Shown here: positions 585 through 32,006 of the stretch, one piece after another
Position numbering within the stretch: the first letter of the stretch is position 1
Layout of the letters: every line of letters starts with the position of its first letter
Notes under the pieces: generated by a model
Told to the model about the DNA's origin: nothing
What the model saw: the letters and a program-made list of their open reading frames with translations, nothing else
Database searches by the model: none
Program-made: the position numbers and the translations under genes
Assembly (NCBI RefSeq): GCF_048077055.1
Contig: NZ_CP182236.1
Span: forward strand, 7,450,594 to 7,498,593
Direction: 5' to 3'
DNA from: Egbenema sp. FJBBOT/2019
GTDB taxonomy: Bacteria; Cyanobacteriota; Cyanobacteriia; Elainellales; Elainellaceae
Length of the DNA: 48,000 bases

Positions 585-1889
585 TTATGCACCAGGAACA
601 AATTGGAAGTCTTGCGTCAAGGTGACAGTTGTGTTGTCTGCTACGACTCCAACCAACATATTGGTTGGTTTGTGGAAGATAGCTATATCATTCAGCGAAC
701 CTCTCACACCTGCCGTATCAGCTAACCTCAGTAGATAGTCACTCGCTTGTCCTTGAACGGAAATCTTATCGCCTTGGGCGCGGCTAAAGTCTTCAATGAC
801 GGCGTATCCCTGATTATTTCGGTAGAAATCCTTGAGGTAGAAGGTGTCTGCCCCTGCACCACCGACCATCGTATCGACTCCACCACCCAAGCCGATAAGA
901 TGATCATTGCCATCACCACCCACCATCCGGTCTGACCCGGTGCCACCGATTAGCGTGTCGTTATACTTTCCGCCCAGCAAGGTGTCATTACCTGCCGCTC
1001 CATCCAGGTAGCTACCTGAGGTGGCATAGCCGTTATTCGCTATAAGCGTATTGTCGAAGCGGTTACCTACAGCACCAGTCGTTCCACCATGAAGTTGTAC
1101 TCTTTCAACAAATTGCAGATCATCGGACATTCGATAAGACTCATTCAGAGGTTGCCCGTTCTCAATCAAAAAGACCATGAGCGTATCGGTTCCTTCATTG
1201 GCATATTCAATGATTACTGGTGTGTTGTTGCTATGAATGTGGTAAGTATCATTGCCTGTTCCACCATACAAAGTGGTTCCAGCACCGCCGCTTAGAGTAT
1301 CGTTGCCTTCACCACCGTAGAACGTAGAGCCACTATCACTACCATATAACCAATCATCACCAGCATCTCCATAAATGGTATCTTTACCACCCCCTCCAAC
1401 AATCGTGTCATTTCCGCCGCCGCCCCGGAGTTCGTTGTCCCATCTGTTTCCCTCAATTCTGTTGGCTTGATTATTCCCAATTCCAACAATCCCAACCCCT
1501 TTAGTTGCATCATTCATCAGGGTCAAGTTTTCAACAAAATTAGGTAAAACGTATCGTCGAGCATGGGATTGTACCCAGTCAGTCCCCTCGCCATCGCGCT
1601 CAATGATTTGATCTTGTTCACTATCGACAACATAAGTATCATTTCCTTTGCCGCCAATCATGCGGTCATTACCAGTTCCCCCATCCAGGGAATCATCTCC
1701 ATCTAGTCCTACCAATGTGTCGTTGCCAGAGCCGCCGAGTAAGGTGTCGTTTTTTCCTCCCCCCGTTAGGCTGTCATTTCCAGCACCGCCATCAATGTGC
1801 CAGCTATCCCACCATTTGATGGGCCAAATTCCTGATTGTTCTGCTGTGATTGTGTCGTTGCCAGAGCCGCCACTTCTTCTCGTAACCAT
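585..1889 (-). CDS. RTX (hemolysin-type calcium-binding repeat) protein, paralogue 1
   Basis: 434 aa with many GGxGxDxUx nonapeptides (GGAGNDSLTGGGKNDTLLGGSGNDTLVGLDGDDSLDGGTGNDRMIGGKGND). AAGGAGAAACTTCA precedes the ATG. Paralogue of 25597..26895. Confidence 0.85.
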   Translation of the reverse strand: MVTRRSGGSGNDTITAEQSGIWPIKWWDSWHIDGGAGNDSLTGGGKNDTLLGGSGNDTLVGLDGDDSLDGGTGNDRMIGGKGNDTYVVDSEQDQIIERDGEGTDWVQSHARRYVLPNFVENLTLMNDATKGVGIVGIGNNQANRIEGNRWDNELRGGGGNDTIVGGGGKDTIYGDAGDDWLYGSDSGSTFYGGEGNDTLSGGAGTTLYGGTGNDTYHIHSNNTPVIIEYANEGTDTLMVFLIENGQPLNESYRMSDDLQFVERVQLHGGTTGAVGNRFDNTLIANNGYATSGSYLDGAAGNDTLLGGKYNDTLIGGTGSDRMVGGDGNDHLIGLGGGVDTMVGGAGADTFYLKDFYRNNQGYAVIEDFSRAQGDKISVQGQASDYLLRLADTAGVRGSLNDIAIFHKPTNMLVGVVADNTTVTLTQDFQFVPGA

Positions 1890-2188
1890 TGAAGTTTCTC
1901 CTTTAATTTCTTGTTTGAGTTGGGTGCAGTATTTTTTGTACTTGCGTTAGCGTTGGTGTATGCAGAGAAGTTATAGAAGATTAACCGAGTGCCTCAATCA
2001 GTATCGATTGCCTTCAGTAAGTTCGCTTTACATCCGTAGATTGAGTGTAATGGCGGTTAACTTTATCGGTCTAATACATACTTAATTGAATCAACAGTCG
2101 ATTAGAAAACTCGTTCATCAACTGATTTCGTTTGTTTTCCGCTGATTGGTTGTCTTCCATGTTTATAAGATACAAAGTCTACTCAGGT

Positions 2189-2266
2189 TTGTCTTTACAG
2201 GAAAGTATGGAGTGGAGTATGCAGTGAAATATCAGAAAAGTATGGTGAGATTTACCTAAAGTATGG
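2189..2266 (+). promoter_or_regulatory. Phased AGTATGG-box cassette, copy A (upstream of RTX-1)
   Basis: TGTCTTTACAGGAAAGTATGGAGTGGAGTATGC... with boxes starting at 2204, 2216 (AGTATGC), 2239 and 2260, spacing 12/23/21. The GTTC array to its left is degenerate in this copy. Confidence 0.6.
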
Positions 2267-2468
2267 TGATTTAACTGGTAGCGCAGGCATCTTGCCTGCA
2301 ACGGAGACTGAATTGAAAGCAAAAAAAACACCTACAAGTGAATCTTTAATCTTACAGAAAAACGAATTCCACAGAAAAACGATCGCCCAACCCTGTAAGC
2401 GATCGTCTATGTGCTGTTTGTTTTATGGGTGCCTGGTGGTGGGGACTCGCTGGTGGTGGGCAATGCCC

Positions 2469-2894
2469 CTACAGGGCAGGAATTACGCCGAGCTGCTGGA
2501 GTAGTCCCAGGGCATCCTCTTCGGTTCGTCCTTCCACAATTTTGCCGTCGCTCAGACGGTACATTTCAACGCCTGTGTAGGAGATGGCTCGTCCGGTGGG
2601 GGGTAAGTTAAGCAGGTGAATAAGCCCCTGATGGGTTCCTTTTGCAGCCCAGCAGATTACGACTTTGTCTGCTTCCGCGATCATCTCTGTAATCGTTAGT
2701 TGTAAATCAGGGAAACCAGCGTGAACATCTGTAATGAATGATTTGAAGCCTTCTCGATCGAGGGGTTGAGGAAAAATCGTGTAATGGATTTTGAAATCAG
2801 GACTGGTCAATTCATCGACAATCGCCAGATTGCCCTTACTCCAGGTTTCCTCAAAAAATAGCCGTGCGATTTCCTTGTTTCCTAGCATTAACAT
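2469..2894 (-). CDS. SnoaL-like / ester cyclase family protein
   Basis: 141 aa: NKEIARLFFEETWSKGNL..., GREGFKSFITDVHAGFPDL, GTHQG, PPTGRAISYTG and a LGLLQQLG tail match the SnoaL-like ester-cyclase pattern. Confidence 0.65.
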   Translation of the reverse strand: MLMLGNKEIARLFFEETWSKGNLAIVDELTSPDFKIHYTIFPQPLDREGFKSFITDVHAGFPDLQLTITEMIAEADKVVICWAAKGTHQGLIHLLNLPPTGRAISYTGVEMYRLSDGKIVEGRTEEDALGLLQQLGVIPAL

Positions 2895-2916
2895 AAGAAG
2901 GTTGCCTGATGACTAA

Positions 2917-3009
2917 TTGGTGGACTGGGCGGGCAAGATGCCCACCCCACAAGAGTTGTTTGCTGGTTCTGCTTGGTGGACTGGGCGGGCAAGATGCCCA
3001 CCCCACAAG
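2917..3009. repeat. Two direct copies of a 37-bp hairpin repeat (TTGGTGGACTGGGCGGGCAAGATGCCCACCCCACAAG)
   Basis: Identical copies at 2917-2953 and 2973-3009 between the HlyD stop and the SnoaL start. Each has a GGGCGGGCA/TGCCCACCC stem. The same family occurs at 41743-41828 and 46001-46034. Confidence 0.8.
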
Positions 3010-3029
3010 ATGCCCAGCCTACAAGAAGG

Positions 3030-4403
3030 TTAGCGAACTGAGAAGGCTTCACTGAGTTGTTTGGCGATCGGTTCCAGGATGAAGGAAAGTACCGATCGTT
3101 GGCGAATTACGATTTCCCCTGTGGCGGTCATGCCAGGTAGCAGACGGGTTTCAGTTTGTCCTACTGTGCGAATCGTTTGTTGATTCAGCTTGACTTTAAC
3201 CGGGAATACCAAGCCGAGGGATTCATCCATGACGGCATCGGCACTGATGCTGACGACTTCACCATCTACAGTGCCAAACTCCTGGAATGGGAACGTGGCA
3301 ATTTTCACTTTAACGCGCATTCCAGGCTCCACAAAGCCAATATCTCGATTCAGAATTCTTGCTTCTAAAATCATCTCTTCTCCTTCGGGCAACAACGAGA
3401 GGAGTTCTTCCCCTGATTGAACGGGCCCTACGGAGGCTTGCAGGTTGTAGATAGTGCCGCTAATGGGAGCTTGCAGGACATCCAGAGTTAATTGCTGACG
3501 GGCTGCTGCAATTTGTCCTTCTAAGGAAGCTAAATCCTGATGACGTTGATTTAAAGAGGCTAATACTTCACTTTGTCGTTCAGATCCTAATCGTTCAGCC
3601 ATGTTTAGCGTAGCCTGATAGGACTGTTCAGACTGTTGAATAATTTGAGCCTGGGCTTCAATTTCCCGTTCTAGTGAATTGACATTATTTTGTGCGGTGG
3701 TTAATTCATCCTGTATGCTCAAATAGGCGAATTGTGAAATGGCTCCATTTTCAGAAGAGGCTAATTCCCGCATTCTCGATTCTCGCTCGATCGCATTCCT
3801 GTGGATTAAACGCGCACTTACTAAGTTATCCTGTAAGCGGGCTAACTGAACTCTTGTTTCGTTGATCACAGCCCGTTGACGATTGGCTTCTGCGATCGCC
3901 CCTGCTTGCCGAGACTCAAAATCGCGTAGTCGAGCTGCCAAAAACTGATCTTGCAAAAAGACTCCGGTGCTATTGGTTCCAGTCCGTTCTGCTTCCAGTC
4001 GGGCAATATCTTCTCGAATCAGTTGAGCCGATTGTTCTAACCGATCGATTTCTGCCTGAGTAATGCTGGAATCTTTTTCCACCAGGACATCGCCTGCCTG
4101 TACCCGATCGCCATCTTTGACGTAAATTGACAGGATATTACCATTACCAATCGATCGAACCGGGCGCATTTGTTCCGATGGAGTCAATTTGCCGGAAGCC
4201 ACTGCCACCTCGTCAACTTTACTAAAGTAGGCCCAGGCTAAGGTTCCGACTAATAAAGTACTAATACCAATGCCCAGAATCCGGGTATAGAAGGGCGGCA
4301 ACTCTTTAACAGATTTACCTAACTCATAGGAAAGAAATTCTTGTTCTGTGACTAAATGCTGCCGAGTGTGACGAGCGTAGGGTGCGATGGGAGCTTGTTG
4401 CAT
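3030..4403 (-). CDS. HlyD-family type I secretion membrane fusion protein
   Basis: N-terminal TM helix (ILGIGISTLLVGTLAWAYF), long coiled-coil, then a C-terminal beta-barrel (GMRVKVKIATFP, LLPGMTATGEIV). I place the start at ATG 4403 (GAGG 8 nt upstream). The ORF-track extension to 4466 translates a heptamer repeat. Confidence 0.85.
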   Translation of the reverse strand: MQQAPIAPYARHTRQHLVTEQEFLSYELGKSVKELPPFYTRILGIGISTLLVGTLAWAYFSKVDEVAVASGKLTPSEQMRPVRSIGNGNILSIYVKDGDRVQAGDVLVEKDSSITQAEIDRLEQSAQLIREDIARLEAERTGTNSTGVFLQDQFLAARLRDFESRQAGAIAEANRQRAVINETRVQLARLQDNLVSARLIHRNAIERESRMRELASSENGAISQFAYLSIQDELTTAQNNVNSLEREIEAQAQIIQQSEQSYQATLNMAERLGSERQSEVLASLNQRHQDLASLEGQIAAARQQLTLDVLQAPISGTIYNLQASVGPVQSGEELLSLLPEGEEMILEARILNRDIGFVEPGMRVKVKIATFPFQEFGTVDGEVVSISADAVMDESLGLVFPVKVKLNQQTIRTVGQTETRLLPGMTATGEIVIRQRSVLSFILEPIAKQLSEAFSVR

Positions 4404-4420
4404 AGTAACCTCTGTGTTTG

Positions 4421-4448
4421 GGAGTGAGGAGTGAGGAGTGAGGAGTGA
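4421..4448. repeat. Heptamer tandem repeat (GGAGTGA)x4, STRR-like
   Basis: Four perfect tandem units, followed by the GGTGGGCA-A-TGCCCACC palindrome at 4458-4474, in the ABC/HlyD intergenic gap. The same heptamer array occurs at 45851-45885. Confidence 0.85.
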
Positions 4449-4486
4449 GAGAAGTAGGGTGGGCAATGCCCACCATTCACCAACCT

Positions 4487-7096
4487 TTAACCGATCGTTT
4501 GTTGCCGTTGGTAGAGTGACCAGTACAATCCTTGCTGTTCCATTAAAGTGGCATGATCGCCCTGTTCAACCAGTACGCCTTTATCTAAAACCAGGATCAA
4601 ATCGGCTCGTTTTAGCGGTTCAAAGCGGTGGGTAATCATGAAAACGGTGCGATCGGTTGCGGTGCGTTGGAGATTCGTTAATACGGTCTGCTCAGTTTCG
4701 CTATCTAATGCGCTGGTTGCTTCATCCAGAATCATGATCGGAGCCTGGGAGAGGAAGAATCGTGCTAACGCGATGCGCTGTCGTTGTCCGCCAGAGAGAG
4801 AGGTTCCCCGTTCTCCGACGTTGGTTTCGTAGCCTTGCGGCAGGTCAGTAATAAAGTTGTGGGCGGCAGCATTTTGGGCGGCGGTGATCACTGCTTCAGC
4901 CGTAATATCGGGATTGCCCAGGGTAATGTTTTCGAGTACTGAGCTGTTGAACAGAAAATCATCCTGCAACACCACTGAAATTTGTTGCCGCAGTGAACTT
5001 AAATCGGCTCCTTTCACCTCAAATCCATCGACTAAAATCCGTCCTGATTCCGGTTGATACAGTCCTTGCAGCAACTTAGACAGGGTGCTTTTACCCGAAC
5101 CACTGCGACCCACTACGCCCACCAGCATTCCCGGCTTGATGGTGAAGGAAACGCCGCGCAGGATGGGTTCCTGTGCTTCACGATAGCGGAAGAATACTTT
5201 CTCAAAACTGACTTCACCCTTGAGGGAGGGCAGGACTAAGCCCGTGCCGGGTTCTGCTTCCGGTGCGACGTTGAGAATATCACCGAGGCGATCGACCGAC
5301 AGCAGAACTTGCTGAAAACTTTGCCAGAGTTGCACCAGGCGTAGAATCGGACTGGTGACGCGGCTGGATAACATTTGGAACGCAACTAATTGACCGACGG
5401 TTAAATCACCCTTAATTGCCAGATGGGCACCGACTCCCAGAATTAGCAGGTAGGACAGACTGGTTAAAAAGTCGCCTAAGTGACTACTGATATTGGAGAT
5501 GGTTGAAGCGCGGAAGTCGGTGCGAACATAGCGGGCAAACAACCCTTCCCAGCGTTCACGGGTGGCGGGTTCCATCGTGTGGGCTTTGACGGCATGAATG
5601 CCTGTAATGGTTTCCACCAGAAATGATTGACTATCGGCATTCCGGTTAAAAGACTCATCCAGCCAGCGGCGCAAAACAGGTGTGGAGGTCAAAATCAATA
5701 GGGTGAACAGTGGAATCACGGCCAGAGCCACCCCCGTTAAGGTGACGTTGTAGTAGAGCATCAAAACCAGATACACCACCACAAAAATAGAGTCCAACAC
5801 GACGGTTAAGGCAGTCCCCGTCAGAAATTGCCGAATGTTTTCCATCTCCTGCACTCTGGCTACCGTATCCCCAACTCGACGCGCCTCAAAGTAGGCGAGG
5901 GGTAAGTGCATCAAATGGCGGAACACCTGGGCAGATAGGCTGAGATCGAGCCGTCGGGCGGTATGGGTGAAGGTGAACAGGCGCAGGATACCCAACAGAG
6001 CCTCAAAGACAGCAATGCTGAATAGGGCAATCAGCATTACATTCAGGGTGGAAACGCTGCCCTGTACCATCGCCTTATCAATAATCACCTGGGTTAATAC
6101 CGGAGTTCCTAATCCAAACAGTTGCAGGGTGAGGGAGGCGATCAGGACTTCGCCCAGCAATCGACGGTAGCGCAAAATGGCGGGGAGAAACCAGGAGAGG
6201 TTGAAGGTTTCCTGCTTCTGCATTGGCTCCACCTGCCAGAGCTGATGGTTCCAGGCGGCTTCAAAGTTGGCTTTGGGAATTCGCTGACAGGATTGCTGCG
6301 GGTCAAGGGGATGGGCAATGATCACCGTGTTTCCCTTGATGGCATACACCACGACCCAATGTTGTTCGTTCCAGTGCATCAAGGCTGGAAGATTGACCTG
6401 ATGCAGATCTGCCCAGGCGACGCGGATCGATCGCATCTGTAAGCCCAATTTTTCTGCGGCTTCTGTGACGTGCTTGGGGCGTTGCCCGCGTAACTGTCTC
6501 TGGACACGCTCCAGGTGAGTGGGCAGGTTCAGGTACTGCATCGCCATCGTCAGGCAAGCTGCCGCTGTATTCAAGCCTCCGACAAAGGGATAGTCTGAAA
6601 CCGCTTGAGTCACTGTGAGAGCCTGAGTTTGATAAGCCGATCGCACCTTCGTCCAAAACTGCTCCAGTTCCGTTGTCTGAAACGGTTCCCACAGTTCCCC
6701 GCTCCAGCAGGCGATGATGACTTCATTACTAGCGGCGATCGCCTTCACCTCGCCCAACAAGCCCAGCACCTCACCAAACCATTCACCTTTCGCCAGGGTT
6801 TTCAGAGAGGTTTGCGCTGCTGCTTCTCGTAAACGGACTTTCCCTTTCAAAACGTAGTAGAAGGCATTGGGCTGATTAGCATCCGTTGACCAAATTTTCT
6901 CGCCCATTTTGTATCGCACTACCTGCGCCTGATGATTCACAATCACCTGCTGTTGGGCAGTCAGTAGCGCAAAGGGCGGTTGTTCCCAATCAATGTCTTG
7001 GATAATCTCTGGAGTGGCGCGATCGAGGGTTGTTGTTGAACCAGTGGATGAGTCGGAGGGGGAAGCGGTTGGGTTGGGCATAATCTTGTGGCTCAT
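4487..7096 (-). CDS. Type I secretion ABC transporter with N-terminal cNMP-binding-like domain and degenerate C39-like peptidase domain
   Basis: 869 aa. CAP_ED-like beta-roll (GEKIW...YYVLKGKVRL...GEWFGE), C39-like block (NTAAACLTMAMQY ... HWVVV), six-TM ABC domain, Walker A GRSGSGKST, signature LSGGQRQR, Walker B ILDEATS. Confidence 0.9.
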   Translation of the reverse strand: MSHKIMPNPTASPSDSSTGSTTTLDRATPEIIQDIDWEQPPFALLTAQQQVIVNHQAQVVRYKMGEKIWSTDANQPNAFYYVLKGKVRLREAAAQTSLKTLAKGEWFGEVLGLLGEVKAIAASNEVIIACWSGELWEPFQTTELEQFWTKVRSAYQTQALTVTQAVSDYPFVGGLNTAAACLTMAMQYLNLPTHLERVQRQLRGQRPKHVTEAAEKLGLQMRSIRVAWADLHQVNLPALMHWNEQHWVVVYAIKGNTVIIAHPLDPQQSCQRIPKANFEAAWNHQLWQVEPMQKQETFNLSWFLPAILRYRRLLGEVLIASLTLQLFGLGTPVLTQVIIDKAMVQGSVSTLNVMLIALFSIAVFEALLGILRLFTFTHTARRLDLSLSAQVFRHLMHLPLAYFEARRVGDTVARVQEMENIRQFLTGTALTVVLDSIFVVVYLVLMLYYNVTLTGVALAVIPLFTLLILTSTPVLRRWLDESFNRNADSQSFLVETITGIHAVKAHTMEPATRERWEGLFARYVRTDFRASTISNISSHLGDFLTSLSYLLILGVGAHLAIKGDLTVGQLVAFQMLSSRVTSPILRLVQLWQSFQQVLLSVDRLGDILNVAPEAEPGTGLVLPSLKGEVSFEKVFFRYREAQEPILRGVSFTIKPGMLVGVVGRSGSGKSTLSKLLQGLYQPESGRILVDGFEVKGADLSSLRQQISVVLQDDFLFNSSVLENITLGNPDITAEAVITAAQNAAAHNFITDLPQGYETNVGERGTSLSGGQRQRIALARFFLSQAPIMILDEATSALDSETEQTVLTNLQRTATDRTVFMITHRFEPLKRADLILVLDKGVLVEQGDHATLMEQQGLYWSLYQRQQTIG

Positions 7097-7170
7097 GGTT
7101 GGGAGATAGGGTTTCGTATAGTCGTGTCTCAGATGGGGAGGTTATCCATGATTGAAGGTAGCGATCGAAG

Positions 7171-7345
7171 CGTTCTCAGAGCGTTCCGAAACCGTTCTGG
7201 GGTCGTTCGGTGATGGCTTGACCTCCACACTTCACACAATACAGAAGCTCTCCAGCCCTGTCTTTACAGGAAAGTATGGAGTGGAGTATGCAGCTCAATT
7301 GTGAGAAAAGTCAGAAAAGTATGGTGGGGATTGGCAAAAGTATGG
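7171..7345 (+). promoter_or_regulatory. Phased-repeat cassette, copy B (upstream of the ABC-HlyD operon)
   Basis: GTTC at 7172/7183/7194/7205 (exactly 11 bp apart). TGTCTTTACAGG, then AGTATGG boxes at 7273, 7285 (AGTATGC), 7318 and 7339, spacing 12/33/21. Confidence 0.65.
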
Positions 7346-7416
7346 AGAACGGCAACTGAGGTTGGAGCGATCGGTTGGAGCGGTTGGGGATATGCGGAAA
7401 AATAACGTACCCGGTG

Positions 7417-7438
7417 GGGGCGCACAACTGTGCGCCCC
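7417..7438 (-). terminator. GC-rich hairpin downstream of PPC-C2 gene A (candidate terminator)
   Basis: GGGGCGCACA/TGTGCGCCCC stem of 9-10 bp. On the minus strand a T5 run follows about 14 nt later (CGTTATTTTTCC), so it is not a textbook intrinsic terminator. Confidence 0.45.
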
Positions 7439-7491
7439 TATCCCCACGAACCTATTGGCAATTCAGCGGACGATGCACACTGCAAACGAGC

Positions 7492-8487
7492 TTAAACGTA
7501 TCGGGTAGAGATTTTGAAGGTAATCTCATTGCGATTGGAGTCGTTTCCTTCAGTCGTCTTGGATTCTCCCAGGTTGAATGCGGAGATCCGCAAATCATTA
7601 GAGGTAACACGACCGGATTGCAAGTCTACTCTGAAGTCCAAACCTCTTCCAGAACCGGAGTTAATATCTGCCTGGTCATCAAAGATCAAGTCCTTGTCCC
7701 AAACTTCAAGGGAGATATTGACTGGATTGCCGCCTGTGAGAGGAACGTCTCTAGTAAAACTCCAGTTTGGATTGTGAGAGAAAGCACCTATGGTTCCCAA
7801 ACCTCCCCACGCAGTTGGCCACTTAATTGGCTGAGTCTGGAATCGCGTTCCACCCATATTGACCTTGGCATACCAGTCAGGCCGCCCACCGTTGTCTAGT
7901 TCACCTGTGTCTTTAAGGTTCGTGACATCTAAAACAAGCTGTTTGCGAGACTCCCGTGCGGAAACACCTAAGCTGTAGTTAATTGTGTTGGTTGTGTTCG
8001 TGTTAGGACGAAAGACCGCAGCATAGTAGGTTCCGGCTTCCAGTCCGGCTCTTTGAAAATGAGTAGATGCCGTGCCCGGTAAAATGCTTGCTGCACCAAC
8101 CGATCGACCATCCGCACCCATTAGAGACACAATTACGGTTTCATTAGCTCGTGTATTTGTGTTGGTCAGCGACAAACTCACTGTATTCTTGCTATTGTTA
8201 ACAGTGAATGCGTACATATCCATCGCATCAAACGAGCTAACTGTACCGGTATAGGAGGCAGAGCCGTTATTGGTAAAGTCGCCAATGTGATTATTCCGTC
8301 GAGCTTCTTCAGCGGTGTTGTTGGCTTCCCGTTCTCGTCCGCTAAAGTTATAGGATGTGCTTGTACTTTGAGTGGAACGAATAGAAGTAGATGCTTCTAA
8401 AGCAGATCGATTGGCTGCTTGTAGCTGGTTAACATTGGTACTCAAGCGATTAACTGGATTGAGTCGGTTAACTTGAGAATTCGACAT
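7492..8487 (-). CDS. Secreted-type protein: conserved N-terminal leader-like segment, S/T-rich linker, PPC (pre-peptidase C-terminal) domain, C2-like C-terminal domain (paralogue A)
   Basis: 331 aa. PPC signature DMYAFTV...VSLSL...GTYYAAVFR...YSLGV. C-terminal PDWYAKVNMGGTRFQT...NPNWSF...ISLEVWDKDLIFDDQADIN resembles the C2 consensus. Close paralogue of 9953..10933. Confidence 0.75.
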   Translation of the reverse strand: MSNSQVNRLNPVNRLSTNVNQLQAANRSALEASTSIRSTQSTSTSYNFSGREREANNTAEEARRNNHIGDFTNNGSASYTGTVSSFDAMDMYAFTVNNSKNTVSLSLTNTNTRANETVIVSLMGADGRSVGAASILPGTASTHFQRAGLEAGTYYAAVFRPNTNTTNTINYSLGVSARESRKQLVLDVTNLKDTGELDNGGRPDWYAKVNMGGTRFQTQPIKWPTAWGGLGTIGAFSHNPNWSFTRDVPLTGGNPVNISLEVWDKDLIFDDQADINSGSGRGLDFRVDLQSGRVTSNDLRISAFNLGESKTTEGNDSNRNEITFKISTRYV

Positions 8488-8801
8488 TGAAGTTATCCTT
8501 TTTGAAGTTTAAGTATGGTTTATATTTGCTGAGTTTTGACGCAACCTGTCCCAGCCTTACTCCAGCGGTGACTGTCCAGAGAACTATGCAATTCAGTTTA
8601 GGAGAATGCTTTGGGATGATTGGTCACTAGTATCGATCGTCCACCTAGTCCTTCAGGGAAGATTCTGGCGGACAGTTCCCACCCTACTCAGAGTCTATCC
8701 GTAAACTTATGAGAGCTTTTGGCATCCAAGTTCCTGACGGAGTTCTCAGATAGGTGCTTAAAGCAGTTTCTTTGTAGGATAGGGAGTGTCCATCAGAATG
8801 A

Positions 8802-9563
8802 CTAGGCTACTCGAAGTTGAACCCGTTTGTCGTGCAGTTTTTGAGCAATCCACTGGTCAAAAATCGTATTGCATAACAGTTGTTGGACTTCCTCATTAGC
8901 GAGGGACGCAGGCAAAAACTGTTCTAGACGGAATAAACACCACTTCTGATCGATTTCAATGGGGCCAACAATATCTCCCACCTTTGCCAAATCGATCGCC
9001 ACTCGCAATGCATCCGGCAATTGACCTCGGCTAATGGTTCCCAGCATACCATTGACGACTCGATCGCCTGATATGGAATACTCTCGCACCAGTTGCTCAA
9101 AGCTGGCTGCTTCTTCTATGATCTGAGCTTTCAGTTCTTCAGCCAGTTCCCAGTTTTCTACGACTAAGCGGGATAGCACAACCTGGTCAAGATGGAGTTT
9201 TTGATCGATGAAGGTTTCCTGCAACTTGGGTTCCACGATCGTGGGTAGAAACTGGTTCATCTGGAATTGATGGGTGATATTTTGCTCAAAAGCTGTTCTC
9301 GTCAGACCTTGCTGTGCCAACCACTGCTGATAGTGTTGATCATCCAGAAGCTGATTTTCCTGACGAAAGTTAGTGATGATTTGCTGGATCTGTTCTGCGC
9401 TAACCTTTGCTTGAGGACAGTTTTGTAATTCTTGCTTTAAGACGTGCTGCTGTAAGACTGTGCTAATGAATGAACTGAGTTGACCAGAGGTTTGCAGATA
9501 ATCAATGATCTGTTCGATCGTGATGGGATGATCGTCAATATAGAGAAAGGTTGGGGTGTTCAT
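8802..9563 (-). CDS. Parvulin/SurA-like peptidyl-prolyl isomerase family protein (paralogue 1)
   Basis: 253 aa. The C-terminal block EYSISGDRVVNGMLGTISRGQLPDALRVAIDLAKVGDIVGPIEIDQKWCLFRLEQ fits the PpiC rotamase pattern (S..GG.LG...G.l...f..a...l..G..s.P). Paralogue of 12510..13274. Confidence 0.65.
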   Translation of the reverse strand: MNTPTFLYIDDHPITIEQIIDYLQTSGQLSSFISTVLQQHVLKQELQNCPQAKVSAEQIQQIITNFRQENQLLDDQHYQQWLAQQGLTRTAFEQNITHQFQMNQFLPTIVEPKLQETFIDQKLHLDQVVLSRLVVENWELAEELKAQIIEEAASFEQLVREYSISGDRVVNGMLGTISRGQLPDALRVAIDLAKVGDIVGPIEIDQKWCLFRLEQFLPASLANEEVQQLLCNTIFDQWIAQKLHDKRVQLRVA

Positions 9564-9614
9564 CGTATTTCCGAGTTAGGTTTACTACTGAATCAAACTA
9601 AGTTGGGATCGAAT

Positions 9615-9789
9615 TGTTCTCAAAGTGTTCCGAAACCGTTCTTCAACTCTTCCGATTTTTGTTCAAATTTCATACTCATACTATACAAAAGCTACCCGTG
9701 CTTGTCTTTACAGGAAAGTATGGAGTGCGGTATGCAGCTCAATTGCCAGAAAAGTCAGAAAAGTATGGTGGAGTTTCTCAAAAGTATGG
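9615..9789 (+). promoter_or_regulatory. Phased-repeat cassette, copy C (upstream of parvulin-like gene 1)
   Basis: GTTC at 9616/9627/9638, CTTC at 9649, GTTC at 9661. AGTATGG boxes at 9717, 9729 (GGTATGC), 9762 and 9783, spacing 12/33/21. Confidence 0.65.
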
Positions 9790-9851
9790 AGAATGGCAAT
9801 CAAGGTTGAGGCGATCGGTTGTAGCGGTTGGGGACATGCGGAAAAATAACG

Positions 9852-9892
9852 TAGGGGCGCACTGCTGTGTGCCCCTACTGCTGTGCGCCCCT
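9852..9892 (-). terminator. GC-rich hairpin with duplicated 3' arm downstream of PPC-C2 gene B (candidate terminator)
   Basis: GGGGCGCAC can pair with either GTGTGCCCC (9868-9876) or GTGCGCCCC (9883-9891). The unit ACTGCTGTGYGCCCCT is duplicated. A minus-strand T5 run follows (CGTTATTTTTCC). Confidence 0.45.
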
Positions 9893-9952
9893 ATTCCCAT
9901 GAACCTATTAGCAACTCAGCGGGCAATGCAGAGATGCAAACGGCAAATGAGC

Positions 9953-10933
9953 TTAAACGTATCGGGTAGAGATTTTGAAGGTGATTCGATTGCGATTAGA
10001 ATCATTGCCTTCAGTGGATTTTGTCTCTCCCAGGTTGAACGAGGAAATCCGCAAATCATTAGAGGTAACACGACCGGATTGCAGATCAACCCTAAATTCC
10101 AGGCTTCTTCCAGAACCAGAGTTGATATCTGCCTGGTCATCAAAGAACAAGTCCTCGTCCCAAACTTCAAGGGAGATATTGACTGGACTACCGCCTGTCA
10201 GGGGAATATCTCTGGTAAAACTCCAGTTTGGATTGTAGGAAAAGGGTAGATAAACCCCCGTAAACCAGCCCCAATCTGGAGGCCGAGTCTGAAATCGAGT
10301 TCCGCCCATGTTGACTTTGGCATACCACTCAGGCGGGGAACCAGAATCCAAACCCACTAGGTCGGTGAGGTTCGTGACATCCAGAACAAGCTGTTTTCGA
10401 GACTCTCGTGCGGAAACACCTAAGTTGTAGTTGATGGTGTTGACCGTATTAGAGGCAGCGCGGTAGACCCCAGCATAGTAGGTTCCAGCTTCCAATCCAC
10501 TAAGCTGAATGCTTTCCGCTTGGGTGCCTGGTTTAGCTGATGCACCGATTTCCTGCCCACGAGAATCATACAGAAATAGGTTTGCATTTGCGTTCATGCC
10601 AGACAGTGATAGATTCACTGTGTTTTTGCTGTTTCTAACGGTAAAGGCATACAGGTCTAACGAGTCACTGGAGCTAACTGTGCCGCTGTAGGAAGTAGAA
10701 GCATTGTGGGTATAGTCACCAATGTGGTTGTTCTGTAGTGCCTGGGTAAACGTATTGTTCGCTTCCCGCTCTCGACCCGTGTAGTTATAGGATGTACTGG
10801 TACTGGTACTGGTGGTTGTGCTGGAACGTGAAGCAGTTGATTGTTCTAGCGCAGATCGATTTGCTGCTTGCAAACTAACATTAGAACTCAGACGATCGAC
10901 TGGATTGAGGAGATTAGCAGGAGAGTTCGACAT
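9953..10933 (-). CDS. Secreted-type PPC + C2-like domain protein (paralogue B)
   Basis: 326 aa. Same architecture as 7492..8487: MSNSPANLLNPVDRLSSNV..., DLYAFTV...GTYYAGVYR, PEWYAKVNMGGTRFQT...NPNWSF...LEVWDEDLFFDDQADIN, and a conserved tail ITFKISTRYV. Confidence 0.75.
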   Translation of the reverse strand: MSNSPANLLNPVDRLSSNVSLQAANRSALEQSTASRSSTTTSTSTSTSYNYTGREREANNTFTQALQNNHIGDYTHNASTSYSGTVSSSDSLDLYAFTVRNSKNTVNLSLSGMNANANLFLYDSRGQEIGASAKPGTQAESIQLSGLEAGTYYAGVYRAASNTVNTINYNLGVSARESRKQLVLDVTNLTDLVGLDSGSPPEWYAKVNMGGTRFQTRPPDWGWFTGVYLPFSYNPNWSFTRDIPLTGGSPVNISLEVWDEDLFFDDQADINSGSGRSLEFRVDLQSGRVTSNDLRISSFNLGETKSTEGNDSNRNRITFKISTRYV

Positions 10934-11127
10934 AGAAGTAATCCTTCAAGACAAAATGATTGACAGGTTATTTGATTCACGATCCTTTGTTAGATTTTCA
11001 GGAAAGGTGGTAGGGAGAACCGTGCCAACCCTACCAACCTTGTATCGCTTTCAGTCCATCCGGCTTCACCAGCAGGCTTTAGCTATACTTTGGCAAGCCA
11101 TTTGGAACTGAAATTTATCTTGCCTAC

Positions 11128-12386
11128 TTATGCAGCGGAAGCCGGAGTAGGTTGGCTAGCATCTCTTACGGTTAGCTTATAACTGCTGCCCTGTGAGTGC
11201 GAGCCATTGAAGACCTTCACAAAGTAATCTCCAGGTGCCAACGTCTTTTGGAACTCCTTAACATCTGTGCCACTTTGCGTCAGTTCTTTCACCTTTCTGC
11301 CCTGAGAATCCATCAATTTCAGGTTCAGGTTTTGGTTCATCTCAGCCAATGAAAAGCTGACATTGGTTTGTTGATCAAGGGAAAAGGCATAGATATCTTT
11401 GATATCATCTCTAGCAGTTTCACCTTTCGCCGTAATCGCCTTTGCAGACAGGTTTCCTAAGTTATTATTTGCCCGTGCGTCTGCGATCGTATTATTACTT
11501 TCCTGCTCTAAAAAGTATGGATTGGGAGGCTGAGGTGCGCCTGCGGAAGGCTGCCCCACCGAAGGTCTCGGAGGAGTGGGTACGCCTGCAGGCTGGGGAG
11601 CATAACTAATAGGGGCAGGTGGTCGAGGAACGCGATGATCGACAATGCTCGGACCGGCTGGAGTTGGGCTAGCAGGACGATGATCGACAACGATCGGACG
11701 AGCTGGAGTCGGGTTTTGAATTGTAATCGTTGGAAGTTGAACGGTTACGTTTGGCAGACCTGCGGGTTTGGTCACTGCGCCGATTACGCTATTGATTGCA
11801 TTACTGGCTGCATTACTGACTGCATTGGCGGCAGTTGCTACGGGGCGAGCCACGGTGTTGACCACTGTATTAGCTGCGTTTACTGCCGTTGACACCGGAC
11901 GAGTCACCGTGTTTAGAACTGTGTTGGCTGCATTTGTTACTGCTGCCGTGACGGGTCGAGCGACGGTGTTAATCGCAGCATTGGCTACGTTTGCTGCCGT
12001 TGACACCGGACGAGCGACTGTGTTTAGAACTGTACCGGCTGCATTATTAACTGCATTTACGGCAGTTGATACGGGTCGTGTTACTGCACTGGCGACAGCC
12101 GATCCAACCGCAGCAATACTAGACAGGGTCGGTGGTTTAATTGTCACCTGTACACCTGTTGGGGAAGGATTAGAACTAACAGGTGTTTGCGGTCGGTGAT
12201 CGACAACGACTGCGGCCGGGGTGCGATCGCGGTCGAGGCAGTCGAGCTTGGCGCACGGCTAGGAAGCACATTGTTTGCGATCTGCGTTGCTGCACCGATC
12301 GGATTACTTGTGGTTGTAATCGCTGAAGATACAGCAGTTGCGGTCAAGTTACGATTTTGTTGGGTTGTGTTTGCAGTTGCCAACAT
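11128..12386 (-). pseudogene. Third PPC-domain protein with ~18-aa TVARPVSTAxNAxN repeats and a Pro-rich linker; reading frame broken by a 1-nt shift
   Basis: ATG 12386 has AGGAG 10 nt upstream and opens MLATANTTQQNRNL.... That frame stops at 12144. The 339-aa ORF (11128..12147) stays open in the -1 frame back to 12258 (AAVVVDHRPQTP, echoing the internal IVVDHRPASP). C-terminal PPC: DIYAFSL...GDYFVKVF...YKLTV. Confidence 0.6.
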
Positions 12387-12509
12387 TGAGATTAATCTCC
12401 TAAGTAATTTGTTGTTTAGATGCCCACTACGAGTTTCATCCTGTTCGTGGTGGGTAGAGCCTATCCTGGGGGTTGTCCACAGCATAGGCATTACCAACCA
12501 GAATCACGA

Positions 12510-13274
12510 TCACGAGGCAAGCTGTAATTCAACGTGTCTATCCCGCATCCTTTCAGCCATCCATTCCTCAAAAATTTGAGTTTGCAGTGAAGTTTGAATC
12601 GCTTCATCCGCCAGAGAAGCTGGAATAAACTGTTCAACTCGGTACAGAAACCATTGCTGCTCAAACTCTAAGGGACCAACAATGTCACCGGGTTGAGCCA
12701 CATCGATCATGGCGCGCAGTCCATCCGATAGCTGACCTCGGCTAAGGGCACCCATCATGCCATTGATCAGGCGATCGTCCGATACAGAATACTCTCGCAC
12801 CAGTTGCTCAAAGCTGGCTCCTTCTTCTGTAATTTGTGTTTTGAGTTCCTCTGCCAACTCCTGGCTATCCACTACTAACTGCGACAGCACGACCTGGTCA
12901 AGATAAAGCTTTTGATTGATAAAGGTTTCTTGCAACTTTGGCTCAACAATGGTTGGCACAAACTGTTCTAACCGCAGGCGATGCATAATATCTTGTTTAA
13001 GGGCGATTTCAGTTGTGCCTTCTTGGGCTAACCATTGCTGAAAGCACTGATCGTCTACAAGCTGTTTTTGTTGTCGAAACTCTGCAATCATTCGCTCAAC
13101 TTGTTCTAAGCTAATATGTGCTTCAGGACAGCTTTGTAACGCTTGCTCTAAAATATGCTGGTGCAAAACCGTACTGATAAATGATTCAAGCTGTCCAGAG
13201 GTATGAAGATAGCGAAGGATCTGGTCGATCGGAATCGGTTGACTATCAATATAGAGAAATGCTGGAGTGTTCAT
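12510..13274 (-). CDS. Parvulin/SurA-like peptidyl-prolyl isomerase family protein (paralogue 2)
   Basis: Start chosen at MNTPAFLYID to parallel MNTPTFLYID of paralogue 1; the ORF-track start at 13340 is also possible. C-terminal EYSVSDDRLINGMMGALSRGQLSDGLRAMIDVAQPGDIVGPLEFEQQWFLYRVEQ. Confidence 0.65.
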   Translation of the reverse strand: MNTPAFLYIDSQPIPIDQILRYLHTSGQLESFISTVLHQHILEQALQSCPEAHISLEQVERMIAEFRQQKQLVDDQCFQQWLAQEGTTEIALKQDIMHRLRLEQFVPTIVEPKLQETFINQKLYLDQVVLSQLVVDSQELAEELKTQITEEGASFEQLVREYSVSDDRLINGMMGALSRGQLSDGLRAMIDVAQPGDIVGPLEFEQQWFLYRVEQFIPASLADEAIQTSLQTQIFEEWMAERMRDRHVELQLAS

Positions 13275-13371
13275 TGGGTTATCAGGATAAGTGTGCTGAA
13301 TCGTTTTAAGGTTTTGGATTTGAGCTAGGAAAGTCATCAACTTGATGATGGCTGAAACAACTTTAAGTTAA

Positions 13372-13546
13372 TGTTCCATGCGTTCTCAAATCGTTCCTAA
13401 ACCGTTCTGAAGTTGTTCCGTCGGTGGTTTGTCTCCCACACTTCTTACGATACAGAAGTCATCCAGAGCTGTCTTTACAGGAAAGTATGGAGTGGAGTAT
13501 GCAACGCAATATCAGAAAAGTAAGGTGCGATCGGCTTAAAGTATGG
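13372..13546 (+). promoter_or_regulatory. Phased-repeat cassette, copy D (divergent region between parvulin-like gene 2 and STAND gene 1)
   Basis: GTTC at 13373/13382/13393/13404/13415 (spacing 9/11/11/11). AGTATGG boxes at 13484, 13496 (AGTATGC), 13519 (AGTAAGG) and 13540, spacing 12/23/21. Confidence 0.65.
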
Positions 13547-13707
13547 AATGGGGTAAAGAGGCACTAATGCTTCAGGAATCCGTCCCTTTGCTGTGTAGTG
13601 GTTTAGAGCCTGCCATACCATAGAAAAAGTGTGGGTTTTGCCTGAACCCCAGAAAAATAGGGTATAAATTTCTGAGAAGCATATATATTCCTCTATATTT
13701 CAGTCCT

Positions 13708-16700
13708 ATGCACCCTGCCTCAGCGATCGAAATTGAGTTTGATCAAGTAATTCCCATCGTGAACAATATCCTGCAAGGGAAATGCGATCGCCCCCTCAGT
13801 GATCTGGAGGTTGAACTATTGAGGGGAGCCTGGGATAATTTGACCTATGATGAAATCGCTGCTCGATCGGGCTATTCGCTGAACTATCTCCAGCGGGATA
13901 TGGGTCCAAAGTTTTGGAAGCTCCTGGGTCGTAGCGTGGGGCAAAAACTTAGCAAAGCGAACGCCAGAGTTATTTTGACTCAGATTGCACAATCCCAGCT
14001 ACAACCCCCAGAGCCTCCGCCTCCCCTGCCAGATGCCACCCCTCCAGAGACGCAAGCAAAACTCCTCACAGTTCAGACCGCCCGCCCCGATCCGCCGCCT
14101 CTCCCCTCGCCTCCCGCCATTCCCTCCACCTGCGACTGGGGCGAAGCGATCGATACGTCTATCTTTTATGGTCGAGAAACTGAGTTACAGACCTTGCATC
14201 AATGGATCATTGATGACCATTGTCGAATGATTGCGGTACTGGGCATAGGAGGTATCGGGAAAAGTTCCCTGGCCGCCAAAATCGCTACCATCCTGCAAGA
14301 TCAGTTTGAGTTCATCATCTGGCGATCGCTGCGGAACGCCCCACCGTTGGAAACCTTGCTCAGGGAGCTTGTCCCCTTTGTTTCCCGTCAGCAAGATACC
14401 CAAGCCCAACCCGATCGACTGCTGCACTGGCTGCGTACCCATCGCTGTCTGGTAATTCTCGATAACCTGGAAACCGTTATGCAGGTTGGCGATCGGGCCG
14501 GATACTATCAATCTGATTATGAGAACTATGGCGAATTGCTGCGAATCGTTGGAGAAACCACCCATCAAAGTTGCGTCTTGCTGACTAGCCGCGAAAAGCC
14601 ATCGGAAATTGCTGTGCTGGAAGGCCCAGATACCTGGGTGCGATCGCTGACCTTAGGCGGTTCTCCAGAAGCCTCGCTGGCTCTAATTGAGTCAAAAGGT
14701 TTATCCGGAGAAGCAGCAGAAAAACTACAACTTTGTGAGTCCTATAGTTATAATCCACTCGCTCTGAAGATTGTCGCGTCTTTCATTGACAGTCTGTTTG
14801 ATGGAGAAATTGCTACATTTCGGCAAGAAAACACCTTGCTGGTCAATGGTCTGCGGCGTTTGCTGGAACAACAGTTTGAGCGATTATCCTACCTGGAACA
14901 AACGATCATGTACTGGTTGGCGATCAACCGTGAATGGATCACGATCGCTGAACTGATGGAAGATATAGTTCCAACACCTTCTAGAGTTAACTTGCTAGAG
15001 ACATTGGAATCACTAACGTGGCGATCGTTGGTGGAAAAGCGAGCGGGTGCATATACTCAGCAACCCGTTGTCATGGAATATATTTTGGAATGCTTGATTG
15101 AGCGAATTGCAACCGAGTTAATCACAAACAAGCTTTCCCTGTTTCACCGCTACGCGCTCGTTAAAACATCTGTTCTGGAATATATTCGTGATAGTCAAAT
15201 TCGCTTAATTTTACAACCGATCGCCAATCGATTGCAGTCTACCTTGCCTGCTCGATCAGCAATAGAACAGCATCTCAGAACAGTCCTACAGCAACTACGG
15301 GCTACGACCCATCCAACTTCACGCTACGGTGTGGGCAATTTACTAAACCTGCTGATTCATTACCAAGTTGATTTGGCTGACTATGATCTGTCTCATCAAC
15401 AGATTTGGCATGCTCAGTTGGAGAAAACGACCCTCCAACGCACCAATTTTTCCTATGCTGAATTGCACCAAACAACCTTTATCCAACCCCTGAGCTATAT
15501 TCTGGAACTGGCCTTCAGTCCGGATGGTCAATTGCTGAGTACCGTTGATAGTACAGGACACATTTATCTGTGGCGGGTTCAGGATGGGCAACCGATCGTC
15601 AATCGTTTGGGACATGCCAGCCGGATTCATTCAGTTTGCTTTAGTCCGGATGGTGCGATCCTTGCTACAGGCAGTGCCGATCGTACCGTTAGACTCTGGG
15701 ATGTCAAAACAGGCACAATGCTGAAGCAACTTCATGGGCACACAAATGAAGTTCGATCTGTCGCCATTAGCCCCAACGGGCAATTCTTAGCGAGTGCCAG
15801 TGCCGACACCACCATTCAAATCTGGGATTTGGCGAGTGGGACATTGCAAAAAACGCTCACTGGGCATGAAGATGAGCTTTGGTCATTAGCATTTAGTCCC
15901 AATGGGCAATACCTGGCGAGCAGTGGGGCGAGACCAAACATCCGGATCTGGGATGGGGTAACGGGAACTCTGGTGCGGACGCTGGCAGGAGATGCGCCGA
16001 TTCATTGGTCGGTGTCCTTTAGTCCCGATGGACAAATCCTGGCGACGGGCAGTAACGATCACATGGTGCGCTTGTGGCAGGTGGCAACGGGGCAGCTTTT
16101 ACGAACCTTAGACGGCCATACGAGCCATGTCATTACAACTTGCTTTAGTCCGGATAGATTGTACCTGGCAAGTGGTAGCCTGGATTGTTCGATTCGGATC
16201 TGGGATGTCCGAACCGGTGCGCTGCTCAAAACGTTTCAGGGACATACCAATGGGATCTGGTCGATCGCTTTTAACCCAGACGGTTCCCTGCTGGCCAGTG
16301 GTGGGCAAGATTACTGTGTGAAATTGTGGGATATCAAGCTGGGGCAGACTCGTAAAACGCTGCGAGGTTACAGCAATAGTGTGCGATCGGTTCGTTTCAG
16401 TCCAGATGGGCAGACGATCGCAGCGGCTGGGTATGATCCTAAGATCAGAATTTGGGATGTCGCCCTTGAGCAAATCACTCAGTCCTTTTACCCGGAACCA
16501 GGCGGAGTCTTTTCAGTGGAATTCAGCCCAGATGATACCCTGTTGGCCAGCGGTGGCTCTGCTAACACCATCAGCCTTTGGAATTTAAAGACTGGGCAAC
16601 TGTTACGAAGATTAGTGGGACATCAAGGCTGGATTTGGTTATTGTCCTTTAGCCCCGATGGACACTACATTGCCAGCGGTAGCACAGACAGCACCCTGAA

Positions 16701-17394: not shown

Positions 17395-17533
17395 CCGCTC
17401 CAGCATCTGTTTTTTCACTTTTCTACTCTATATGGTTGAGCCGCCCTTGCTTGAGAAAAGTGTGGAATTCGGCTGAAAGACGATGAAATGGGTTATATAT
17501 TTCTGATAAACACGTAGCGCTTCCTGGTTCCCT

Positions 17534-27250: not shown

Positions 27251-27289
27251 ATTTCACTTCGCTACCCCCCTGGAGAACAGTCGCCACCT

Positions 27290-31977: not shown

Positions 31978-32006
31978 AGTATGGAATTTGGGTGAAAAAA
32001 GTATGG
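31978..32006 (+). promoter_or_regulatory. Mini AGTATGG-box pair upstream of the diiron oxygenase-like gene
   Basis: AAAAAGTATGG at 31978 and AAAAAGTATGG at 32000, 22 bp apart, same strand as the other cassettes, 80-107 nt upstream of the minus-strand ATG at 31899. Confidence 0.5.

Follow-up and report, generated by a model that had tools for sequence, protein, structure and literature searches.

A 48,000-nt stretch of the genome of the cyanobacterium Egbenema sp. FJBBOT/2019 (contig NZ_CP182236.1, positions 7,450,594 to 7,498,593; this whole stretch is the window referred to below) carries, in four places between its genes, an element built from direct repeats of the box AGTATGG. The four copies, cassettes A to D, stand ahead of minus-strand genes for RTX, PPC and parvulin proteins and for a C39-ABC/HlyD exporter, and a shorter pair of boxes precedes a gene for a diiron enzyme. 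Which protein, if any, reads these repeats? A preliminary description had taken them for a shared multi-site operator and had named the helix-turn-helix (HTH) domains of neighbouring STAND proteins as candidate binders. Both proposals gained support here: in Planktothrix, Microcoleus, Leptolyngbyaceae, Aliinostoc and Tolypothrix, homologous HTH-STAND genes were found to have the array, together with its prefix, directly upstream, and the array tracks one clade of these genes, defined by the sequence NYLQRD in the predicted recognition helix. Evidence from about 100 related loci points to the repeats as the DNA sites bound by the adjoining STAND HTH domains, which would make this large, uncharacterised family one of transcription factors. 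We consider it likely, with a probability of roughly two in three, that the cassettes are multi-site operators through which the adjoining STAND-1 and STAND-2, both of the NYLQRD clade, control the four operons and the diiron gene by way of an N-terminal HTH_VMAP-M9 domain. The comparison also suggests three things beyond the preliminary description, namely a minus-strand promoter in each cassette, a bidirectional control region common to the whole family, and private boxes in other clades, including that of a third protein of the window, STAND-3.

Repeat arrays in the window

The box census in the source genome covered the 48,000 nt of the window. AGTATGG occurred 19 times, compared with 4.7±2.0 times in dinucleotide shuffles, none of which (0/100) reached 19, and AAAGTATGG at no more than one mismatch occurred 31 times, compared with 10.2. 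The earlier count of at least 14 perfect copies therefore stood. The accompanying statement that all lie on one strand and between genes did not: 17 of the 19 are on the plus strand and 2 on the minus strand, and three perfect plus-strand copies (11514, 17145 and 19675) fall within open reading frames (ORFs). It applies only to the 14 boxes of the cassettes and the diiron pair and to the single box at 8512.

Checked copy by copy, the cassettes, their box coordinates and the spacing of 12, 23 (or 33) and 21 bp were as first described. Each of the four paralogous cassettes contains three or four AAAGTATGG boxes, every one of them on the plus strand. The boxes of cassette A are at 2204-2210, 2216-2222 (AGTATGC), 2239-2245 and 2260-2266 (spacing 12, 23 and 21 bp) and those of cassette B at 7273-7279, 7285-7291, 7318-7324 and 7339-7345 (12, 33 and 21 bp). 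Cassette C has 9717-9723, 9729-9735 (GGTATGC), 9762-9768 and 9783-9789, and cassette D 13484-13490, 13496-13502, 13519-13525 (AGTAAGG) and 13540-13546. The 10 bp by which B and C are longer are indeed an internal duplication, GAGAAAAGTCAGAAAAGTA. The box is asymmetric, of the form (A)AAGTATGG(A/T)G, and is repeated directly. Spacings cluster at 9-15, 20-23, 33-34 and 43-45 bp, corresponding to about 1, 2, 3 and 4 helical turns, in agreement with the helical phasing proposed before.

A core of 35 nt, TGTCTTTACAGGAAAGTATGGAGTGGAGTATGCAG, is invariant across cassettes A to D. As the flanks average 66% identity, this invariance is not attributable to duplication. A 2.4-kb tandem duplication takes in cassettes B and C, whose identity of 86% is close to that of the coding DNA on either side; A and D have the cassette alone in common with B and C, not the flanks. 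Since 12 of the boxes come from four paralogous copies, two of which belong to the tandem duplication, the enrichment does not represent 14 independent events. The true signal is threefold: the invariant core, the repetition within each copy and the conservation in other genera.

A weight matrix trained only on boxes from outside the window was then applied with a cut-off of 17 bits. It returned 14 sites, all on the plus strand, of which 13 belong to the cassettes (three each in A, B and C, two in D) and to the pair ahead of the diiron gene. The fourteenth, at 11514-11520 (18.0 bits), is isolated within the ORF at 11128-12147. Another isolated box, at 8512-8518, scores 14.4 bits and lies 23 nt ahead of the start codon of PPC-A. 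The diiron pair, which like the box at 8512 was present as first described, is a two-box mini-operator, AAAAGTATGGAA and AAAAGTATGGTT, at 31978-32006 on the plus strand, with the two boxes 22 bp apart. It precedes the AurF-like diiron gene (30955-31899, minus strand) by 77-107 nt, and a minus-strand TAGGCT is found 29 nt from its proximal box. Finally, a single variant box, AAAGTGTGG, is present on the plus strand at 13626-13634, 28 nt upstream of TATAAA and ahead of STAND-1. Its paralogue precedes STAND-2 at 17457-17465, and the same feature occurs in the filamentous cyanobacterium CCP2.

Arrays accompany one clade of HTH-STAND genes

STAND-1 (13708-17394, plus strand) and its paralogue STAND-2 (17534-21277, plus strand) are proteins of 1,230 residues. 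In STAND-1 the HTH_VMAP-M9 domain is encoded at 13708-13995, with the helix SLNYLQRD, and is followed by NB-ARC/NACHT and WD40 regions; the HTH of STAND-2 is 84% identical and likewise has the NYLQRD helix. STAND-3 (27290-30895, plus strand) has the recognition helix SISYIRRH.

We searched for relatives by the DNA motif, scanning 185,579 genomes, one per species, for the 19-mer TTTACAGGAAAGTATGGAG. There were 14 matches, 6 of them cyanobacterial, and the full array was present in five of these six. Three of the five arrays stand directly upstream of an HTH-NB-ARC/NACHT gene, and two, in CCP2 and Leptolyngbya FACHB-8, upstream of an RTX gene. Two further AGTATGG boxes follow the 19-mer in Planktothrix, Microcoleus and a Leptolyngbyaceae strain (twice), and 50-80 nt downstream begins an ORF starting with MEFEQALE…, whose product has the same N-terminal domain as the STAND proteins of the window and then NB-ARC/NACHT. 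In CCP2 and FACHB-8 the RTX gene is on the minus strand, as with cassette A, and in CCP2 the cassette is followed by an HTH gene with 76% identity to the HTH of STAND-1, as with cassette D. When the RTX upstream regions of the window and CCP2 were aligned, what proved conserved was the cassette and about 60 nt beside the RTX start, the approximately 300 nt between them being poorly conserved with large indels. An operator would explain why a 35-nt sequence is conserved across cyanobacterial orders.

Relatives were also collected through the protein, blind to the motif. Among loci fetched by protein identity, the array was directly upstream in three of the four that bear PF26355 (Aliinostoc, Tolypothrix twice, a Leptolyngbya), and Leptolyngbya sp. 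7M has three AAAATACAGG repeats in place of the AGTATGG array. Two control loci with XRE-like N-termini had nothing comparable upstream. A metagenome scan with the domain alignment gave 80 loci, and the 70 with at least 300 nt of distinct upstream sequence were analysed. AGTATG arrays were present in 8/8 loci with the NYLQRD helix and in 0/62 of the others (Fisher p = 1e-10, to be read as an upper bound on the strength of the evidence). Outside the upstream windows, 639 kb contained four stray AGTATG pairs, none with the A-rich prefix.

The genes on the divergent side of HTH-STAND genes resemble those of the window. They include homologues of RTX (L039, L044, L055 and L080), parvulin (L036 and L062), the diiron enzyme (L010 and L026), the GNAT protein (L019 and L025) and the C39-ABC exporter (L071). 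As these loci are independent, the gene set of the window can be said to recur. The array between the regulator gene and a divergent target gene, an arrangement kept in cassette D, CCP2 and most relatives, appears to be the ancestral layout. Other divergent neighbours are a Bacillus_HBL-like protein beside a related STAND gene (L016, 207-2583) and, in a control locus without VMAP-M9 (L023, 1-2700), a subtilase with a long coiled-coil protein. In L011, the HTH-STAND promoter and first 44 codons are duplicated (484-730 and 1537-1871) with a small-gene pair inserted between, which indicates that the control region and the 5' end of the gene move as one.

Box sequences differ with the recognition helix

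Across the family, 39 distinct elements share the scaffold (T/C)GTCnTTnCAG(G/A)AA(A), and the 7-mer that follows it differs by clade. Helix NYLQRD is accompanied by the box AGTATGG, SY(I/V)KRD by AGTTCTGG and SYL(R/S)RD by A(T/A)(G/C)TCAGG; further box variants accompany other recognition helices. Within the next 230 nt, the element's own 7-mer recurs, at no more than one mismatch, 2.3 times, compared with 0.26 times for boxes of other clades, and an excess of the own box was found in 37/39 elements (Wilcoxon p = 4e-8). In L065 (682) and L068 (2918), the scaffolds are almost identical and all three boxes have changed in parallel, with GTTATGG in the former and GTTCTGG in the latter. Locus L043 has intermediate boxes (GTATGG, GTTATGG and GGTAAGG). 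A simple rule in which one residue, N or S before the Y of the helix, sets the box was also considered and fails across clades.

The same situation was found within the window. RTX-2 (25597-26895, minus strand) and STAND-3 diverge from a control region at 27153-27251 that aligns with the cassettes through the scaffold (AAGATA at 27153-27158, TGTCGT at 27176-27181, and TTACAGAAAA), but its boxes differ: they are private GTCCAyT boxes, AAATGTCCA at 27188, AAAGGTCCA at 27212 and AACTGTCCA at 27243. A concerted change of every repeat on a fixed background, matched to the adjoining HTH, is what a cognate pair of protein and operator predicts.

The N-terminal domain of the STAND proteins

In all three STAND proteins the N-terminal 90 residues are unannotated and are followed by NB-ARC/NACHT and then WD40. 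The NB-ARC, NACHT and nSTAND1 matches lie at residues ~150-320 of the same polypeptide. The name of the N-terminal domain comes from homologues 45-87% identical to it, in which the precomputed Pfam annotation gives PF26355, HTH_VMAP-M9. A Pfam scan of the STAND proteins detected no GerE, Trans_reg_C or BTAD domain, and a search with the 86-residue domain alone gave 7 short matches only. With a domain profile, 2,597 clusters at 50% identity were obtained; the domain nearly always occupies residues 1-83, and the family of HTH_VMAP-M9 STAND proteins is almost confined to filamentous cyanobacteria.

An AlphaFold model of the domain, built from 27 sequences (mean confidence score, pLDDT, 87.6), has helices at residues 11-25, 32-42, 47-54, 58-77 and 86-95. 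The best solved structures in a fold search were the tetrahelical, LuxR/GerE-type DNA-binding domains of EL222, DosR, FixJ, NarL, GerE and RcsB, along with region 4 of sigma-E, with probabilities up to 0.97, a template modelling score of ~0.63 on the target and root-mean-square deviations of 2.5-2.9 Å. The residues that define the clades (…SGYSxNYLQRD…) are at the start of the long third HTH helix, the predicted recognition helix. A profile search of Protein Data Bank sequences with the domain gave insignificant matches only, among them a local resemblance to the HTH of SoxS (SGYSKWYLQRM). The equivalent residues of SoxS are where AraC-family proteins contact bases, and the clade-variable residues would map onto these positions.

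Predicted promoters, leaders and genes behind the cassettes

In 36/39 elements a TAnnnT on the opposite strand is exactly 17 nt from an A(A/C/G)GAC(A/G) hexamer, each other offset being found 0-3 times. We infer that each cassette carries its own sigma-70-like promoter on the minus strand, AAGACA-N17-TAnnnT. The four units that they would head extend over 585-13340 of the minus strand and make up, with the diiron gene, the predicted regulon. Cassette A (promoter and operator at 2167-2266) has a predicted -10 TATCTT at 2167-2172 and -35 AAGACA at 2190-2195 and precedes RTX-1 (585-1889). In cassette B (7172-7345) the corresponding hexamers are TATTGT at 7236-7241 and AAGACA at 7259-7264, ahead of a cyclic nucleotide (cNMP)-binding C39-peptidase ABC exporter, cNMP-C39-ABC (4487-7096), HlyD (3030-4466) and SnoaL (2469-2894). 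Cassette C (9616-9789), with TATAGT at 9680-9685 and AAGACA at 9703-9708, a pair that a promoter consensus scan listed independently, precedes parvulin-1 (8802-9563) and PPC-A (7492-8487). Cassette D (13382-13546), with TATCGT at 13447-13452 and AAGACA at 13470-13475, is divergent from STAND-1 and precedes parvulin-2 (12510-13340), an ORF of 117 residues, a repetitive protein of 339 residues (11128-12147) and PPC-B (9953-10933). All of these promoters and genes are on the minus strand. In the gene for the 339-residue protein, tandem repeats of 45 nt and 111 nt (11617-11706 and 11840-12054) encode a segment of the type NTV(A/T)RPVSTA(A/V)N.

Transcription from the minus-strand promoters is predicted to start near 2160, 7229, 9673 and 13440, giving leaders of ~270, 133, 110 and 100 nt. 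Relative to these starts, the boxes would lie at ~-44/-50, -56/-62, -79/-85 (A and D) or -89/-95 (B and C), and -100/-106 or -110/-116. G+C-rich hairpins, GGGGCGCACA/TGTGCGCCCC, are present at 7417-7438 and 9851-9893 (duplicated in C), where they separate cassettes B and C from the PPC genes upstream. They are probably terminators that split the transcription units, and such strong hairpins after the preceding gene are consistent with four separately promoted units. For annotation, what would be read as a 13-kb 'super-operon' would resolve into four units with promoters of their own.

The 11-bp GTTC ladder, previously noted in B, C and D, was found at 7172/7183/7194/7205 (7172-7208), at 9616/9627/9638 (9616-9641) with a further unit at 9661, and at 13382/13393/13404/13415 (13382-13418) with a further unit at 13373. 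Triple GTTC-N7 arrays in the window are confined to these three leaders, and a similar triple occurs in the RTX leader of CCP2 (locus L013, around 3355). As the ladder would be at ~+22 to +58 of the predicted transcripts, it lies in the predicted 5' leaders and not upstream of the promoters. Its period of 11 bp suggests a DNA site on one face of the helix. Another clade has GTTC(T/A)GG boxes, to which the units of the ladder, A.CGTTCy, are similar without being a match. A leader peptide in this region (…NGFGTL*) was rejected, as it has no conserved start and its frame is not kept in D.

Directly after the -10, on the predicted start, cassettes B and D have an inverted box on the minus strand (AAGTGTGGAGG at 7221-7231 in B; 13435-13446 in D) with the consensus AAGTGTGG(A/G)G. 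The one in D and AAAAAGTGTGGG (13624-13635, upstream of STAND-1) form an 11/12 inverted repeat, 177 nt apart, and an inverted box AAGTGTGGAG is on the predicted start in CCP2 and locus L019 as well. The inverted box may be a site for looping or repression.

Alternative explanations

Several points weigh against control of the cassettes by STAND-1 and STAND-2. Pfam-A and NCBIfam scans of the N-termini of the window STAND proteins gave no match, and the E-values of the fold search were weak (0.2-2). The correlation of clade with box is confounded by descent, the gene and its upstream region being inherited together; this and the near-duplicate loci in the set (L026/L032, L030/L031 and L090/L092) mean that the Fisher p overstates independence. 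Locus L020 bears PF26355 with a helix other than NYLQRD and has no clear array, and L029 has the NYLQRD helix with no array in its 152 nt of upstream sequence. The minus-strand promoter is by itself a fair match to sigma-70 and so might work without an activator. The promoter of the regulator admits three -10 registers in the AGTATGG clade, so that autoregulation might be of either sign there, and the inverted box at the predicted start of B and D may point to repression or looping instead.

We considered whether the operator-promoters might be real but bound by another transcription factor, the link with the STAND genes reflecting shared ancestry of gene and upstream region. Joint inheritance could indeed produce clade-specific boxes by phylogenetic inertia, and the window encodes other regulators, hybrid histidine kinases at 35333-38606. 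A common outside factor, however, would keep the boxes constant across clades, whereas all repeats of an array change together on a constant scaffold, a concerted change that is hard to reconcile with such a factor. The parallel changes in L065 and L068 and the paralogous RTX-1 and RTX-2 regions, which within one genome have different boxes, each beside a STAND with a different helix, argue in the same direction, and no other DNA-binding gene is a consistent neighbour. We therefore regard this explanation as unlikely, though not negligibly so. That copies A to C function instead on the plus strand, as a vestigial or active promoter of the STAND type with TATGGT in box 3 or the last box, is decidedly unlikely. 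Such a promoter would yield a short RNA, divergent or antisense, directed against the upstream PPC genes, and would influence the minus-strand genes only indirectly. Among relatives this array does drive a plus-strand HTH-STAND gene, box 3 (TATGGT/TAAGGT) fits TAnnnT in 4/4 copies, and B and C remain 86% identical for 60 nt past the last box. Yet no plus-strand gene or conserved ORF follows A to C, the sequence past the last box is without the TTTAAT/TAnnnT seen in relatives, the predicted RNAs have no stable structure, and the 36/39 elements that keep the minus-promoter geometry include A to D. A plus-strand promoter TTTACA-N17/18-TATGCA was rejected because its spacer varies from 18 to 21 in relatives.

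The remaining explanations deny the cassettes a role as DNA sites. The tandem duplication that holds B and C, as similar to each other as is the coding DNA around them, would suit non-functional relics of a segmental duplication carried along with the parvulin/PPC unit. It is very improbable that this is all they are, given the cassette shared with A and D without the flanks, the invariant core and an element kept in other genera with conserved geometry. We give equally little credence to a structured RNA (a small RNA, riboswitch or leader) or a small peptide encoded by the cassette. The repeated AGUAUGG/GGA-like motifs could recall protein-sponge RNAs and the GTTC ladder is within the predicted 5' leader, but no Rfam family matched, folding z-scores were -0.95 to +1.26 on both strands against shuffles, genes are found in either orientation to the element, and its short conserved blocks are separated by variable spacers of approximately whole helical turns. 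As for a peptide, no small ORF is conserved among the copies and the 10-bp indel shifts the frame; a precursor peptide for the C39 exporter was specifically rejected, since the copies disagree in reading frame and copy A reaches a stop after 6 codons. The presence of several copies within 13 kb might also bring to mind a dispersed mobile repeat, like a miniature inverted-repeat transposable element, with no regulatory role. This is extremely unlikely: the copies lack flanking terminal inverted repeats and target-site duplications, each related genome has one 19-mer match, always beside an RTX or HTH-STAND gene, and within the 639 kb of related loci arrays are restricted to the regions ahead of NYLQRD-type genes. 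Regex scans found no NtcA site (GTAN8TAC), RpaB HLR1, Pho box, LexA box or HetR site in any cassette, in line with the initial view that the motif is neither an NtcA site nor a Pho box.

Proposed working of the system

If STAND-1 and STAND-2 do act through the cassettes, the WD40 part would sense a signal, and the NACHT/NB-ARC module would then oligomerise in a manner dependent on signal and nucleotide, by analogy with MalT, LAL and SARP/AfsR proteins. Cooperative occupancy of the phased boxes by several HTH domains would follow, switching the four operons together with the diiron gene, which is probably included in the co-regulation. By the same analogy with MalT or SARP/AfsR, the most likely effect on the minus-strand promoters is activation from the upstream sites.

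The array overlaps the core promoter of the regulator itself, which makes autoregulation probable. In most clades the last box abuts (0-1 nt) a clear TAnnnT of the regulator's own promoter, which points to autorepression, and repression is for the regulator gene somewhat more likely than activation.

Other features of the window

An IS630-like ORF pair (HTH_32 and DDE_3) is present at 23716-24854, between the genes for a pyridoxal phosphate enzyme and ornithine cyclodeaminase and the GNAT gene. A 21-nt palindrome, GTTCACAAATTGTTTGTGAAC, is located at ~32303-32325, in a non-coding stretch of 635 nt between the diiron gene and an ORF of 576 residues. Similar hairpins of the GCAGGCATCTTGCCTGC type are found at 2285 and 32119, to the right of box arrays.

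Relation to known systems and significance

Several known systems share parts of this arrangement. The MalT/LAL family consists of STAND NTPase activators that bind several asymmetric direct-repeat 'MalT boxes' upstream of mal promoters. Common to both are a STAND NTPase fused to an HTH of the LuxR/GerE type (here a fold taken from a predicted structure), and several asymmetric, helix-phased direct-repeat boxes upstream of and overlapping the -35, with one regulator for several operons. The proteins described here differ in having the HTH at the N-terminus (PF26355 in homologues) rather than a C-terminal GerE (PF00196), a NACHT/NB-ARC NTPase, and a WD40 sensor rather than SUPR/TPR. Their box has no relation to the MalT box in sequence, and they belong to a filamentous cyanobacterium, with secretion and exoprotein genes as predicted targets. 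SARP/AfsR proteins of Streptomyces have an OmpR-type winged HTH and BTAD, followed in AfsR by NB-ARC and TPR, and their sites are heptamer direct repeats at 11-bp spacing next to the -10. The order of an N-terminal DNA-binding domain, a STAND NTPase and a repeat sensor is the same, and there is a partial likeness in the short direct repeats with a period of ~11 bp, whose proximal member is close to the -10 in the regulators' own promoters. In contrast, the predicted fold here is LuxR/GerE-like and not an OmpR winged helix, BTAD and Trans_reg_C were not detected, and the last box abuts the -10 (0-1 nt) in regulator promoters instead of being 8 bp away. Repeat periods are ~9-13 or 20-23 bp, and in the cassettes the proximal box is upstream of the -35.

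In LysR-type pairs, the regulator gene and target operon diverge from one intergenic region, and here too one set of sites both overlaps the regulator promoter and precedes that of the target. The proteins belong to an unrelated family, however, the sites are direct repeats and not dyads, and extra operator copies have spread to operons that do not adjoin the regulator. CIITA and NLRC5 are animal NACHT proteins that regulate transcription and are not known to bind DNA directly; the likeness, NACHT-family NTPases with transcription as output, is an analogy only. In their study of 'NTP-dependent conflict systems', Kaur, Burroughs, Iyer and Aravind (eLife 2020, PMC7159879) listed HTH domains only as possible DNA-binding effector domains. 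The domain (PF26355, as assigned through homologues), the kind of STAND architecture and the enrichment in multicellular bacteria are the same, but that study proposes no DNA target, promoter architecture or regulon. The literature searched contained no mention of VMAP-M9 or of the motif in this sense.

Multicellular cyanobacteria are rich in bacterial NACHT/NB-ARC-WD40 proteins, which are usually discussed as sensors for immunity or cell death, almost none having a known output. A large subfamily now gains testable predictions in the form of a DNA word (AAAGTATGG here, other words elsewhere), a promoter architecture and a regulon, which in this window would comprise RTX, PPC and parvulin proteins, a C39-ABC/HlyD exporter and a diiron enzyme. 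Matched variants of HTH and operator on a constant scaffold would also help to decipher a recognition code and to construct orthogonal regulators. More tentatively, and at a little short of an even bet, the HTH_VMAP-M9 STAND proteins (~2,600 clusters) may be an unrecognised class of NLR-like sensors whose output is transcription and not a toxic effector, with a private operator 'word' for each paralogue, a few helix residues that read it, and secreted RTX/PPC proteins and exporters as targets. If this is true, a single genome would hold several orthogonal channels from sensor to regulon, two of them, AGTATGG and GTCCAyT, in this window, and an inducible extracellular response of a multicellular bacterium would be driven by a bacterial NLR.

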